A stretch of 64,000 bases of DNA, from IMG/VR virus record IMGVR_UViG_3300045256_000058, positions 32,001 through 96,000 of that record. One strand, 5' to 3'. Position numbers and translations under genes: made by a program. The stretch comes from a virus. Below are positions 48,948-53,898 of this stretch, one piece after another; position 1 is the first letter of the stretch, and every line of letters begins with the position of its first letter. A model generated the notes under the pieces. The model searched no databases and was not told the origin of the DNA. It saw only the letters and a program-made list of their open reading frames with translations.

Positions 48948-50645
48948 CTACCACTCTAGAGTTCTTAAATCATCTGCATGAGGAAAGTCACTAAAGATTT
49001 CAATACTGTTATGGTCTAATTTATCAATAGTATTTGTATTGATACCCATTTCTTTGAATCTAGCCTTAGTCCAATCATCTTCAGCTATTTTTATTTTAGC
49101 TCCTTTAGTAATGAAACCTACTGACTCATTTCCAAATTCAGCAAGATACTGAACACCATATGCTATACAATCTACGATGTCATCATGAGAACCAATAGGG
49201 AATGACTTAAGTTCAGCTTTAATTGCTGCGGGGTCATATGTAGTTTCAAGCTTTAAGTCTGTTTGAAAAGGATTATAGATAACTATCTTCTTATCTCTGA
49301 AGTAGGTAAGGATGGAACCAAGTCTTTGTTCCTTACTACCACCAAATTTACGTGGGTCAAAAGCATAGATATTGTTTATCTCTCTTTCTAATAGAGACAT
49401 TGCAGCATGACCATTTGCTTTAGCTTCAATACCGATACGACTCTTTGGATACTTCTTCTTTAATTTTCTAATTGCATCTAATTGCTCAGGAATACTACAT
49501 TTGTTTCGATACATATCTACAATGTAGTACTTGTCATCCATCTTACATAGAACTAATCCAACTGTATATGAAGAAGTAGGAGATTCATTAAAGCTTAAAT
49601 CCCATACAGTCATCATCGTACTGTAGTTAATAGGTCTAGCATCTGTTTCTATAAGCCATTCTTCTTTGATTAAGTTACCGTCACCAGTTGCAGTAGGGTC
49701 TTGTTGATAACGAGTGTTATAAATAATTGGATTCTTTGCTTGCGCTGATAGAAAACTGTCAGGTAAACGATGAGGGTCTAGTAATTCGTTACGTACTTTA
49801 CGAATATCATTAAACTTAATCGGACTAACAAATGTTTTCTCAGGTATATATTTAGCAGGAAGACTTAATAGGAACCAACCCTGGTCGCCATAGGTTTCCA
49901 TAATGTAACCAGTAATATCGTTTTCTGCAAGTCTTTGCATTACAAGAATAATTACATCATTGTTTACATCATTTGAACGGTTTAAGAATGTCTGAGTAAA
50001 CCAATCATTAACTCCTTTAATCATGTTTGGATTATTTGATTCTTCAGAGTCAAGTATGTCATCAAGTATTGCAACTGTGTATCCAGTTCCTAGTACTTTC
50101 GATGTAGGAGAACAACCAAGAATATATCCATTCATATCATTATCGATACGCTTCTTGGTATTACTATCTGTAGCTAATGAGTATCTGAAGTAATCTTCAT
50201 TTTTAGGGTCACACCATCTGTCTTTGTAAAGAGGATGCTCAAGAATACGTCTACCATAAATAATGTTCTGCATGAATAGACGTTCAGAGTGAGAAGCTAA
50301 CCAGAATTTCTCTTGAGGATGATTTATCCACCACCATACAGGAGCAGTAATAGAAGCAGTAGTTGATTTACTACTACGTGGAGGAATATTAATGATTAGT
50401 CTTCGTATGTTTCTATTGAGTGCAGCTTGTATATGTTCGCATAAGCATTCAATGTGCCAGTTATTTACAAGAGGTTGAGGGTCAAAGGTATTCCAAAAAT
50501 TAATGAAGAATTGATATAGACTTCTTTCTGATTTTTCATACATTTCTTCTTGAAGTAACTCTTCAAGCATAAAGAGTTCTTCATCAAACTTCTCATCATA
50601 AAAGCCAGGGTCATCAGGTGTAAGTATTTTCTTAGGCATAGTCAA
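48948..50645 (-). CDS. terL: Terminase large subunit
   Basis: 'RLIINIPPRSSKS' P-loop, 'ILDD' Walker B, 'YQQDP', nuclease motifs 'WDLSF', 'IEAKANG' and 'FPIGSHDDIVD'. Confidence 0.93.
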   Translation of the reverse strand: MTMPKKILTPDDPGFYDEKFDEELFMLEELLQEEMYEKSERSLYQFFINFWNTFDPQPLVNNWHIECLCEHIQAALNRNIRRLIINIPPRSSKSTTASITAPVWWWINHPQEKFWLASHSERLFMQNIIYGRRILEHPLYKDRWCDPKNEDYFRYSLATDSNTKKRIDNDMNGYILGCSPTSKVLGTGYTVAILDDILDSEESNNPNMIKGVNDWFTQTFLNRSNDVNNDVIILVMQRLAENDITGYIMETYGDQGWFLLSLPAKYIPEKTFVSPIKFNDIRKVRNELLDPHRLPDSFLSAQAKNPIIYNTRYQQDPTATGDGNLIKEEWLIETDARPINYSTMMTVWDLSFNESPTSSYTVGLVLCKMDDKYYIVDMYRNKCSIPEQLDAIRKLKKKYPKSRIGIEAKANGHAAMSLLEREINNIYAFDPRKFGGSKEQRLGSILTYFRDKKIVIYNPFQTDLKLETTYDPAAIKAELKSFPIGSHDDIVDCIAYGVQYLAEFGNESVGFITKGAKIKIAEDDWTKARFKEMGINTNTIDKLDHNSIEIFSDFPHADDLRTLEW

Positions 50646-50710
50646 TGTTCATAGGTTGTAGTATATCTTATAATATTACTATGAATTTACTTTTAGAGAC
50701 AGAATAGACT

Positions 50711-51304
50711 ATGGTATTACCTCTTTCTTTACCTTTCATGAGTCTTGGCTGGGCAAATCGAGCAAGACTTGTAAAAGAAAACAAAGCATTACAACAACAG
50801 CTAATGCATAATGCAAAAAGCTTACAAGATATTTCCAATCCATTTTCTAACCTACTTCCTAAGTTAGGAGTTGCTGGTGTAGGATTAGCTGGAGCAAAGG
50901 TAGCATCAGATACTATCTCTTCTCCTAAACAAAGACAACAAATGGCTAGTATGGCAGAAGACTTACCTACTGGTTACATACCTAGATATAACTATGCAGC
51001 TAATCGAAGCACTGACTTCTCATTTGCGGCATCAGGTAATGGAGTTACTGCTAACTTCTTTGACCCTCTCACTATGCTTATGGGATTAGAGAATGGTGCA
51101 GCATCTTTGCATTGGAATCTAAAGAATGGTAAGTTACGAAATACTAATAAGATGCTAGAACAAGAGTTACTTCGTAAAAGAGCAAATAGTAACAAAACAT
51201 TAGGTGCAATTGGTATAGGAACTGCGGCACTTGCTACTCCTGCGTTAGCATATATGAATGGCAGAAAACCAAGCAATAGTAATCAGTATTCATCTGCGAT
51301 GTAA
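50711..51304 (+). CDS. Two-repeat putative polyprotein (AxF family)
   Basis: Two homologous units joined by 'YNY...TDFSF...VTANFF'. Confidence 0.6.
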   Translation: MVLPLSLPFMSLGWANRARLVKENKALQQQLMHNAKSLQDISNPFSNLLPKLGVAGVGLAGAKVASDTISSPKQRQQMASMAEDLPTGYIPRYNYAANRSTDFSFAASGNGVTANFFDPLTMLMGLENGAASLHWNLKNGKLRNTNKMLEQELLRKRANSNKTLGAIGIGTAALATPALAYMNGRKPSNSNQYSSAM

Positions 51305-51332
51305 TCAGCAGTATTCATCTGCGATGTAATCA
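51284..51332 (+). repeat. 24-bp tandem duplication spanning the stop codon
   Basis: CAGTATTCATCTGCGATGTAATCA at 51284-51307 and 51309-51332. Confidence 0.9.
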
Positions 51333-51350
51333 ATCTTTACCAACTGAAAC

Positions 51351-51379
51351 TGGATATTAGAGAGTAATGGTGTTAGTAT
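51351..51379 (+). promoter_or_regulatory. Putative sigma70-like promoter for the structured RNA
   Basis: TGGATA-17 bp-TAGTAT with an extended TG. Confidence 0.4.
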
Positions 51380-51384
51380 ATAGA

Positions 51385-51850
51385 TAGGTAGCAAATGAAG
51401 GTGCTAACCTATGGTACTCAGAAATGATACCTAAAGGTCTTAGGTGGGAAGCACATGAAGCATTCAGTTAGGAATAGTCAAGCTAACAAGAATGATATAC
51501 CACTTCCTAAATTAGCAAGTCCTATAGAAAGGATAGAAAACAGATAGCAGCCTAACGCCAGTACATCCTTCACCTCTCTCATGGCATTGAGAAGTAAGAG
51601 GTTTACATAAAATTTTACATCCCCTCTTAGTAAGGGGTTAGGGAAACCTAGTACCTACGATAGGAAATGATACTATATGCGTACCTGTAGCTATTAGGTT
51701 GCTAATGTATTAAGTTGCTTCCGAGGTTACGAGACTACCAGAGAAGGTAGTTGAGTAAGTGAGAGATAGAATGAATGTTTGAAAGAGCATTAAGGAAATA
51801 TACACAGATAAGATGGTAAGATGTTTGCGATATTAGCGAACATCTTTTTA
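51385..51850 (+). ncRNA. Candidate structured ncRNA, ~465 nt
   Basis: ORF-free; many stems, GAAA tetraloops and an 11-bp long-range helix (51545-55/51694-704); ends in a terminator. Confidence 0.65.
51818..51849 (+). terminator. Intrinsic terminator
   Basis: AAGATGTTTGC-N7-GCGAACATCTT-TTT. Confidence 0.7.
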
Positions 51851-51892
51851 GTAAATGTAGGTTTTTCGGCTTTAGATATTCGAATAGCTAGT

Positions 51893-52468
51893 TCAAATAA
51901 TAAAGTGTAAGTTAGACGGTATATTCGGAAACTTATTTCTTTGTATTCTATATAGTCGGTCTAAAGATGATGTAGCTCCAGCAATCATATGATTCTGAGT
52001 TGGATTATTATTAGCATGATTTATCATAGTTTCTATCATTCCTTTAGCTCCGTAATTCTTATATTTAGGATGAGTTACAGTTTCTCCCCACATTTCAAAG
52101 CCATCGGTAGAATGAAGTGAGTAAGGAGTAGAGTAATCTCTCATTCCAGTCATTTTACGTAACCCAATAGTTGTTGGTTTACCTTCTATTGAAGTAGTTA
52201 GAGGTATTGTTTGATGTAATACTCCTCCTCCCATACTTAATGTTGGAGAAACAGGAGAAGTTAGCATACCTTGTGTATACTTTTTAGCTAACTTAGCATT
52301 TTCATATCGAGGATTTAGTGGATGGTTAGGTAAATCTATTCCTGGTTCATTATCACCAAAGTCTCTAAGTATCTCTGTATACTTATTGTCTAATCCTCTA
52401 GCATATTTTCTAACTACTCTGTCATTCATTGGAACGAATGCAAAGGTAGCCATATAATAGTATCTCAT
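51893..52468 (-). CDS. Hypothetical protein, weak GNAT-like C-terminus; AxF-type N-terminus
   Basis: 'YMATFAF' start; 'VTHPKYKNYGAKGMIETMINHA' resembles GNAT motif A. Confidence 0.45.
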   Translation of the reverse strand: MRYYYMATFAFVPMNDRVVRKYARGLDNKYTEILRDFGDNEPGIDLPNHPLNPRYENAKLAKKYTQGMLTSPVSPTLSMGGGVLHQTIPLTTSIEGKPTTIGLRKMTGMRDYSTPYSLHSTDGFEMWGETVTHPKYKNYGAKGMIETMINHANNNPTQNHMIAGATSSLDRLYRIQRNKFPNIPSNLHFII

Positions 52469-52508: not shown

Positions 52509-53495
52509 TTACATGACTTCTTCAGTCTCTCTTTCTAACTCGTATACTACTGGAGCATCTAATACTGCACTCACTTCAATAGTCTCAGGTTCAGATGAAG
52601 GTTTAAGGTCACTAGCATTTAGTTTTCTACCTAGCTTTGCTTCGAGTCTCTTGATAGCTGCTTGTCTTTCTTGAGGAGTTTTGAATTTATGAGACTTAGT
52701 TTCTATTTGGAATAGTTCCATATCTTCTTTTGGAGCATTCTCATAGATTTGTCTTTGTAGCTTATAGATGTTACTAGCTACAGTAATTGCTTCTTTTACT
52801 TCATTTAGAAAGATTGGAGTACCTGTTTTGTTATTTACCATATTCATGTACTCTTTTGTTTCTTCTGATAGATAGTTAGGATTATCTAAGTCTTCAGAGG
52901 CATCTAGTACCTCTCCAAACTTATGTTCGATATATCTATCTAGAACTACACCTAATTTATTACAAGCATTTACAGCAGCTATTTCAGCTTGATAATTCTC
53001 TTGTACATATAAACCTAGCTCTTGTCCTATATTTCTTTCATTTACTCTAGCTAAATAAGCTTTACGAAGATGTTGCCATTTATCTTTATGTACTTTATCT
53101 CTTAGTGTGGTAAAGTTTACTTCAAACTTCTCTGCAAATTCTTTGTAAGTATAATCTTCAGATGCAAATGTACCATCTTCTAACTGAATTCTTTTTCCAA
53201 GTACCCAATGTTTACGTAACTCTGTCCAGTTATACTTCTTAGTTGTTTTACCATAGATATGCTTTAGACGAGGATTTTGTTCAGGAGGTAGAGGTACTTC
53301 ACTAGAACTCTCATAGTTCATGATTGTATTGAGTTCTTTAATTTCTTCTAACTCTTTTGCTACTCTTGAAGTATCCGATAGCTTTACTTTCTTTAGAGTA
53401 GTATATGGTCTAGCATCTGAATCTTTCTTACGAGGATTTGGTCTAGCAATTAATGAATACGTTGTACCTGATTCATTGAATATTTTCTTAGGCAT
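52509..53495 (-). CDS. Putative terminase small subunit
   Basis: 'YNWTELRKHWVLG...YKEFAEKFEVNFTTLRDKVHKDKW' HTH typical of TerS N-termini; upstream of terL. Confidence 0.6.
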   Translation of the reverse strand: MPKKIFNESGTTYSLIARPNPRKKDSDARPYTTLKKVKLSDTSRVAKELEEIKELNTIMNYESSSEVPLPPEQNPRLKHIYGKTTKKYNWTELRKHWVLGKRIQLEDGTFASEDYTYKEFAEKFEVNFTTLRDKVHKDKWQHLRKAYLARVNERNIGQELGLYVQENYQAEIAAVNACNKLGVVLDRYIEHKFGEVLDASEDLDNPNYLSEETKEYMNMVNNKTGTPIFLNEVKEAITVASNIYKLQRQIYENAPKEDMELFQIETKSHKFKTPQERQAAIKRLEAKLGRKLNASDLKPSSEPETIEVSAVLDAPVVYELERETEEVM

Positions 53496-53898
53496 GAGTT
53501 TGCAAGTTGTATAGTGTTTCGTTAGATATAAGAGTGTGTGCAGAAGTAAATATTAGATTGGGTATAGATATTTGACTATATGCACTTGGTAAATTGCGAT
53601 GCTTAAAGTTGTAGGAGAAGTAGATTATTTCTAACTTAGTTGCATCTGGATGAAATAGAAAATAGGATTGTATTTGACCTATTGCATGTTTTATAGAGTT
53701 AAATTCCTTTACTTCTATTAGTCTTTTTTCATTTCTAAATGTTCTCTCACTGTTTGAGTAGAGTGGTTCATCTTTATGTATGATTAGGTCAATTAGTCCT
53801 ACAGGAGTCTTTACTTCTCTAGCAACAGAATACCCTTGGTTAGAAAAATATGCTGCTAGAGCTTTTTGAACTGTAGCTTCGGATAGTTTCGTCTTCAT
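53488..53898 (-). CDS. PD-(D/E)XK nuclease-fold protein
   Basis: 'REVKTPVGLIDL...LIEVK...HAIGQIQSY'. Confidence 0.75.
   Translation of the reverse strand: MKTKLSEATVQKALAAYFSNQGYSVAREVKTPVGLIDLIIHKDEPLYSNSERTFRNEKRLIEVKEFNSIKHAIGQIQSYFLFHPDATKLEIIYFSYNFKHRNLPSAYSQISIPNLIFTSAHTLISNETLYNLQTHA

Follow-up and report, generated by a model that had tools for sequence, protein, structure and literature searches.

Why does a gene-packed phage genome keep 588 bases free of open reading frames (ORFs) beside its DNA-packaging genes? The question is raised by the virus record IMGVR_UViG_3300045256_000058 of IMG/VR, which is 146,347 bp long and of which bases 32001-96000 were analysed (the window, 64,000 nucleotides (nt), to which the coordinates below refer unless another locus is named). 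The record originates from hot-spring/microbial-mat metagenomes and the virus is cyanophage-like. The ORF-free stretch, at 51305-51892, is called the gap below. A first reading of the letters alone, made without database searches (hereafter the sequence-only reading), had placed in it a standalone structured RNA of about 465 nt, located between terL and terS, the genes of the large and small terminase subunits. This predicted RNA is called the target.

A predicted non-coding transcription unit

We propose, with a probability of roughly 0.5, that the gap is an orphan non-coding transcription unit on the plus strand, which may stand alone, have a 3' end in common with the messenger RNA (mRNA) of the ORF at 50711, or both, and that its product is a stable RNA which works in trans by way of its fold. 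The gap contains no ORF of at least 60 amino acids (aa) under genetic code 11, under code 4 (TGA read as W) or with TAG read as Q. The whole genome has 13 gaps of at least 300 nt in 146 kb and is otherwise gene-packed.

From the sequence, we infer the following course of transcription. A host-type RNA polymerase would start about 7 nt past a TGn-TAGTAT -10 element, near 51386, read-through from the promoter of ORF 50711 being also possible, and it would stop at a hairpin with a U-run at 51818-51852. The product, of about 465 nt, would consist of a pair of 5' hairpins, a domain of 160 nt that an 11-bp helix closes, two strong 3' hairpins (one of which is GAAA-capped) and the terminator. It would act via its fold as a stable trans-acting RNA, either protein-binding or a decoy, and would be neither a ribozyme nor an intron. 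The unit, which runs antisense to the packaging genes, would also end plus strand transcription ahead of the convergent late genes (51893 onward). The coordinates of all the features are collected in Table 1.

Transcription signals and strand

The promoter-like TGGATA-17-TAGTAT arrangement that the sequence-only reading had pointed out is present just upstream of the proposed start. In an unbiased k-mer count, no words are more enriched in the ORF-free DNA of the genome than TTAGTATA and TAGTATAT; seven of the nine copies of TTAGTATA are inside it. The -10 word recurs genome-wide in the form TAGTATA(T/G/A), at 29 sites; 13 of these are in the 9.9% of the DNA which is ORF-free (a 4-5x enrichment), and many sites lie 0-45 nt ahead of gene starts. 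TAGTATAT, which is the same 8-mer as the -10 of the target, recurs at 50659-50666 before ORF 50711. The enrichment of TAGTATA in ORF-free DNA suggests that the -10 box of the target is a promoter-type word typical of this genome. The word alone does not fix the direction of transcription, since TATACT, the reverse complement of the motif, is also -10-like. The copy at 50659 may serve terL as well as ORF 50711, divergently, from one palindrome-like box.

At the other end of the unit, the terminator-like hairpin has a predicted stability of -13.6 kcal/mol on the plus strand vs -8.8 on the minus strand (pair probability 0.97), and its U-run is present on the plus strand only. The same bias is seen along the gap: ten local hairpins total -69.8 kcal/mol on the plus strand vs -55.8 on the minus strand, and the robust pairs number 66 (6 G-U) on the plus strand vs 52 (2 G-U) on the minus strand. 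The G and A skews are positive on the plus strand across the gap, as they are on sense strands elsewhere in the genome.

Predicted fold

The stems named in the sequence-only reading, its 11-bp long-range helix and its terminal hairpin can all be read in the DNA; TAGG-GAAA-CCTA, for example, is at 51639-50. Partition-function probabilities are about 0.8-1.0 for the segments 51386-410, 51413-31, 51519-34, 51577-92, 51728-57 and 51774-91 and for the terminator. The hairpin at 51728-57 is more stable on the plus strand (-11.8 kcal/mol, -8.1 on the minus strand), and that at 51774-91 folds on the plus strand only (-3.3 vs 0.0 kcal/mol).

The central domain is closed by TAGCAGCCTAA (51545-55) paired with TTAGGTTGCTA (51694-704), with one G-U. 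This helix has a pair probability of 0.7-0.92 and belongs to the centroid; it is omitted from the single minimum-energy structure, and enforcing it costs 0.1 kcal/mol.

When 481 nt were folded and compared to dinucleotide shuffles, the plus strand gave a z score of -3.96. Equally long coding segments, five of which served as controls, gave +1.23, +0.50, -1.32, -2.51 and -0.36, and another gap gave -2.64.

RNA-X, a covarying element in the slot of related phages

In relatives of the virus, the slot between terL and the homologue of the gene at 52509 has a content which differs in nearly every case: homing endonucleases, poorly conserved ORFs or ORF-free stretches of 457-1180 nt (in the relatives L005, L006, L018 and L020). 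T5orf172 homing-endonuclease genes are found just upstream of terL in L005, L007 and L033; in the latter two, the T5orf172 gene aside, terL directly follows the 52509-like gene.

Reading the gaps of L006 and L018 side by side led to the discovery of a structured RNA, here called RNA-X, which is also found in L020. It has invariant blocks of 16-35 nt (TGTTTAAGCCTTAGAG, CTGATAGTTAAGGCACTA and ACAAAACCATAGGATAGnAACCTGGGGATTTCTTGA). RNAalifold predicts 93 pairs for RNA-X, of which 20 are changed on both sides and still paired, vs 1-4 in slid controls and 0/500 shuffles reaching 20, counts that come from three sequences only and from a structure derived from the same alignment. Several invariant pairs are G-U, which fixes the strand. 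RNA-X is provided with a -10-like box of its own. The L006 copy is located downstream of the ORF 50711 homologue; the L018 copy is convergent with the ORF 51893 homologue, 3' end to 3' end.

Further members were not found when an exact conserved block was searched for in IMG/VR and in the GTDB species-representative genomes, and screening the remaining loci with two covariance models of RNA-X, R1 and R2, added no member. Rfam detects only a tRNA in the relatives' loci, and only noise when RNA-X and the L005 gap are searched at expectation values (E) up to 10. With no Rfam match, RNA-X is apparently an undescribed structured RNA family.

The target has the position and the orientation of RNA-X, i.e. 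between the 52509-like gene and terL and antisense to terL, according to tblastn synteny and gene maps. That this slot contains a structured RNA of another kind in three relatives is a positional argument for an RNA gene at the locus of the target. At the level of sequence, the target is not detectably homologous to RNA-X.

The slot of L005, a 145-kb relative, contains an ORF-free stretch of 1065 nt (L005:7855-8919(-)). Its promoter, TTGACT-17-TATATT, is close to consensus, and it has a body of about 480 nt that is richer in GC. The stretch folds like shuffles (z of -0.7 and -0.2) and shows no similarity to the target or to RNA-X. The equivalent gap of L018 gives z scores of -0.9 and -1.7 and has no similarity to the target.

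It is conceivable, and in our opinion improbable, that the terS-terL junction is a dedicated locus for non-coding RNAs, in which the target and RNA-X would be functional analogues or diverged homologues that cooperate with the machinery of packaging or of early infection, for example as ligands of the terminase or the procapsid, or as a decoy against an RNA-sensing defence of the host. The packaging-associated role on which the sequence-only reading had speculated finds no direct support in the analysis, the repeated RNA genes at this junction being the only indirect one.

Searches for families and homologues

Rfam, searched at gathering thresholds, matches nothing anywhere in the window; relaxing to E up to 10 over 51200-52000 yields a single, terminator-like match to STnc390 (15.8 bits), which is noise. 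The covariance-model comparison that the sequence-only reading had suggested (ROOL, GOLLD, group I introns, RNase P) has thus been made, with no family match. The empty Rfam result excludes recognisable group I and group II introns, RNase P, tmRNA, 6S, GOLLD, ROOL, HEARO and pRNA.

Nucleotide homologues of the target were not found in INPHARED (blastn), in IMG/VR (exact 32-mers), in JGI metagenomes, or in 20 loci around TerL homologues (blastn and nhmmer), which were collected from Logan, ENA, JGI, NCBI and IMG/VR and whose TerL proteins are 29-67% identical. In its own genome the target matches only itself, and 401 cyanobacterial genomes gave only chance matches of 22-53 nt. Complementary or identical words of at least 12 nt, searched for in the phage genome as possible targets of trans-antisense pairing, number 11 vs a shuffle mean of 11.0.

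Eight public DNA runs contain the target, all from one sample/campaign, and no RNA run is among the listed holders. The contigs from these runs are identical to the window, with zero variants and hence no population-level covariation.

Other kinds of RNA were considered for the gap and rejected. A retron, a CRISPR or an omega-RNA-type guide was discarded for want of a neighbouring reverse transcriptase, Cas, TnpB or IscB gene, and Y-RNA-like modules were discarded because their CAGCAA motif is absent from the gap.

Weighing the alternatives

A number of observations weigh against a structured RNA gene in the gap. The minus strand folds as well as the plus strand (z = -4.21), and when composition is regressed out genome-wide in 200-nt windows, the region is ordinary. 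An uninterrupted long-range helix of at least 11 bp was seen in 30/40 dinucleotide shuffles, so that the helix of the central domain is not beyond chance. The helices are largely built on repeated TTAGG/CCTAA words with many alternative pairings, which is unusual for a finely evolved fold. RNA-X, which covaries, has a z of only -0.24; the fold z score thus says little in this lineage, whichever way it points. Both transcription signals escaped a generic scan: the promoter matches only 8/12 consensus positions, and the U-run of the terminator overlaps the stem. An nhmmer profile of RNA-X finds nothing in the target genome, and R1 and R2, run with filters off, give only 5.2 and 6.5 bits on the target (E of about 0.2 within 800 nt). 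Finally, the target is without relatives in the phage, viral, metagenome and cyanobacterial collections searched.

The explanation which best survives besides the RNA gene, although we hold it to be unlikely, is that the gap is the 3' untranslated region (UTR) of ORF 50711 and a transcriptional insulator: the mRNA would have a long tail ending in a strong terminator, the hairpins would merely stabilise its 3' end, and the RNA would have no function of its own. No terminator was found between the stop codon of ORF 50711 (51304) and 51374, so the RNA may also form the 3' part, or 3' UTR, of that mRNA. The convergent layout agrees with this explanation, since a strong terminator would prevent a collision with the late genes, as does the fact that, apart from one helix, only local hairpins are robust and the 200-nt windows are ordinary. 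However, a UTR of 550 nt would be very long for a genome with so few gaps, it would include a genome-typical -10 box at the very position expected for an independent start, and relatives have a true structured RNA at the same position. As regards the independent plus strand RNA of the sequence-only reading, the -10 motif, the terminator, the lack of an ORF and the strand bias all fit, but the unit need not be strictly standalone.

We give rather little credit to the possibility that the gap is a non-functional spacer, i.e. that the terS-terL slot is an insertion hot spot whose sequence is decayed or arbitrary and whose features are incidental. The variability of the slot and the T5orf172 genes of L005, L007 and L033 are in line with it, as are the neighbouring ORFs, which are orphan or nearly so, the uniqueness of the target sequence and the equivalent gap of L005, which folds like shuffles. 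On the other hand, pseudogene remnants were not detected in the gap by tblastn with all the ORFs of at least 40 aa from the relatives and from the genome itself. The strand-biased stability of the hairpins, the well-formed terminator and the z score near -4 also argue against a spacer, and phage genomes this dense rarely keep 0.6 kb of junk.

The third explanation operates at the level of DNA, and we find it improbable. The TTAGG/CCTAA words would be an array of inverted words for a DNA-binding protein (a pac or cos site for terS, an origin or a regulatory site), and the stems would be inverted repeats of the duplex. Seven copies of these words are present, compared to a genome mean of 0.96 per 467 nt, which places the region in the top 0.14% of windows, by a statistic chosen post hoc. 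The equal fold scores of the two strands and the adjacent packaging genes would suit such a site, and so would a circular or circularly permuted map, on which assemblies start at different points. Yet the words occur in both orders and with irregular spacings (3, 4, 5, 8 and 29 nt), and such an array is not conserved in the slots of the relatives. Moreover, the imperfections of the repeats are G-T on the plus strand (6) and not A-C, and RNA-X, in the same slot, needs G-U pairs and so acts as RNA.

It is very improbable that the unit serves to express a micro-protein from the 30-codon ORF, the remainder being leader and trailer. This small ORF is the only one with a Shine-Dalgarno-like sequence, and the spacing is good, but it covers one fifth of the unit, is not conserved, has no recognisable motif and has its start codon within predicted pairing. 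Elsewhere in the RNA, there are Shine-Dalgarno-like purine stretches that no ORF follows.

A degenerate group I-like ribozyme or orphan intron, which GCAGCC and GAGACUA (recalling the Q and R elements), the GAAA loops and the mobile elements of the terL region (TerL inteins, nearby homing endonucleases) might evoke, is effectively refuted, in agreement with the sequence-only reading: RF00028 has no match at the locus at E up to 10, no gene is interrupted on either strand (the neighbours are complete ORFs), an S element is missing, and the pairing partner of the R-like GAGACUACC, GGUAGUU, lies only 6 nt downstream, which leaves no room for P3' and P8.

In the preferred reading, the plus strand non-coding unit, the sequence signals and their strand bias are observed, and the transcription, the ends of the RNA and its function are inferred.

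Neighbouring genes and genome map

Table 1. Features of the gap and its surroundings, with RNA-X in relatives
Feature	Location	Strand	Remarks
terL, large terminase subunit	48948..50645	-	phrog_38, E 6.5e-77; Terminase_6C
Upstream ORF, 197 aa	50711..51304	+	own TAGTATAT promoter at 50659
Tandem duplication, 25 nt, 88% identity	51277..51326	+	spans the stop codon of ORF 50711
Promoter-like element	51351..51379	+	weak -35 TGGATA 51351-56; 17-nt spacer; -10 TAGTAT(AT) 51374-79; TG 51371-72
5' hairpin ATAGGTAGCA/TGCTAACCTAT	51385..51413	+	one bulged A; pair probability 0.72-0.87; -8.9 kcal/mol
Proposed non-coding transcript, ~465 nt	51386..51852	+	predicted ends, not mapped
Hairpin GGUA..UACC	51413..51431	+	pair probability 0.83
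Alternative hairpin ACCTAA/TTAGGT	51429..51445	+	overlaps the 3' end of the 51413-31 hairpin
Small ORF, 30 codons	51455..51547	+	Shine-Dalgarno-like AGGTGG 7 nt upstream
Hairpin GUCCU/AGGAU	51519..51534	+	pair probability 0.94
Central domain, ~160 nt	51545..51704	+	closed by the 11-bp helix; hairpins 51572-602, 51621-37, 51638-51 (GAAA loop)
Hairpin UAC..GACUACC/GGUAGUU..GUA	51728..51757	+	one G-U; pair probability 0.99-1.00; GACTACC/GGTAGTT core 51733-52
GAAA-capped hairpin AAUGUUU/GAGCAUU	51774..51791	+	two G-U; pair probability 0.95
Intrinsic-terminator-like hairpin, 11 bp	51818..51852	+	one G-U; stem 51818-46, then UUUUU
Convergent ORF, 191 aa	51893..52468	-	3' ends of ORF and RNA face each other
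Candidate terS / DNA-binding packaging partner, 328 aa	52509..53495	-	weak PHROG matches, synteny
136-aa gene, PD-(D/E)XK nuclease	53488-53898		precedes the 52509 gene; PDDEXK_9, E 6e-6
RNA-X, ~350-400 nt	L006:3500-3930, L018:3990-4410, L020:2090-2530	-	antisense to terL; 66-68% identity

The terminase of the phage is a classical large subunit with a nuclease domain. Inteins (Intein_splicing, LAGLIDADG_3, PT-HINT) are common in the TerL proteins of this lineage (P0007-P0009, P0011, P0016, P0020, P0027, P0030-P0034, P0038, P0044 and P0047 have one), and the terL of the window has none. Mobile elements concentrate in the packaging region.

The direct neighbours of the gap are ORF 50711 and ORF 51893. 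The only homologue of ORF 50711 found in relatives is a weak one in L006 (27% identity, E 1.7e-6). The second copy of the tandem duplication at its end is out of frame; the duplication may stem from slippage or be the scar of a recombination. ORF 51893 has homologues in L018 and L020 (31-45% identity), and a word-indexed protein search with it gave no homologue.

The protein encoded at 52509-53495 has PHROG matches to a DNA-binding family (phrog_4151, E 0.001) and to terS (phrog_509, E 0.026), as well as a weak HNH-like match (E 0.001). In L007 and L033, two compact relatives, its homologue is kept immediately ahead of terL, and homologues of the 136-aa and 328-aa genes precede terL in relatives. 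On this weak evidence, it is the best candidate for terS, and an unproven one. The location between terL and terS given by the sequence-only reading therefore holds loosely, with one ORF on each side separating the gap from these genes. The 64-kb window contains no tRNA gene.

Bases 1-67 of the genome recur at 146153-146219, i.e. 146,152 nt downstream, in a record that is classified as linear. A different starting point was obtained in each of two independent assemblies of 146,182 nt. The end repeat and the different starts of the assemblies indicate that the map is circular, circularly permuted or terminally redundant.

Relation to known RNAs

The lytic phage ICP1 produces an RNA of about 800 nt from an ORF-less space, which was seen by RNA sequencing (PMC7567579), and GOLLD and ROOL are large RNAs of phages and prophages (bioRxiv 10.1101/2024.12.08.627333). 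Like these, the target occupies an ORF-free phage stretch of several hundred nt and is apparently one discrete RNA, predicted here from the DNA. Unlike GOLLD and ROOL, it has no sequence or covariance-model match, is not beside tRNA genes and shows no ornate multi-domain fold. It also differs from RNA-X, whose 20 compensatory pairs go with a fold score like that of shuffles: the target has a z of about -4 and no relatives were found. It is plausible that the target is a new and unrelated candidate among the ORF-less-space RNAs of lytic phages, which are a known kind.

Small RNAs derived from 3' UTRs, of the DapZ/MicL type, are known in enterobacteria; they are 80-300 nt long and act with Hfq by short seed pairing. 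The target resembles them in having a promoter downstream of a stop codon, a terminator which would be common to the mRNA and a shorter RNA, and no ORF. In contrast to them, it is about 465 nt long and shows no above-chance complementarity to the phage genome.

To our knowledge, the pRNA of the phi29 type is the only precedent for an RNA in a DNA-packaging motor. The pRNA gene is not known to be linked to the gene of the packaging ATPase. The target differs from this pRNA in that it has no Rfam match and no visible intermolecular loop pairing of the pRNA kind, and in that the phage has a classical large terminase.

What the locus may mean for these phages

The RNAs from ORF-free stretches of large phages are often abundant and without known function. 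Considered alone, the target is a modest candidate, a singleton predicted from one genome. RNA-X is a more solid by-product of the analysis, which is open to comparative study and could be a partner for testing a shared function of the slot RNAs. Should the target prove genuine, it would contribute an orphan case from a lineage of hot-spring/mat cyanophages that has been little sampled, and it would make the terS-terL junction a site at which these phages keep RNA genes time and again. If, in addition, this junction were a dedicated locus, it would define a new class of phage RNA linked to the packaging genes.

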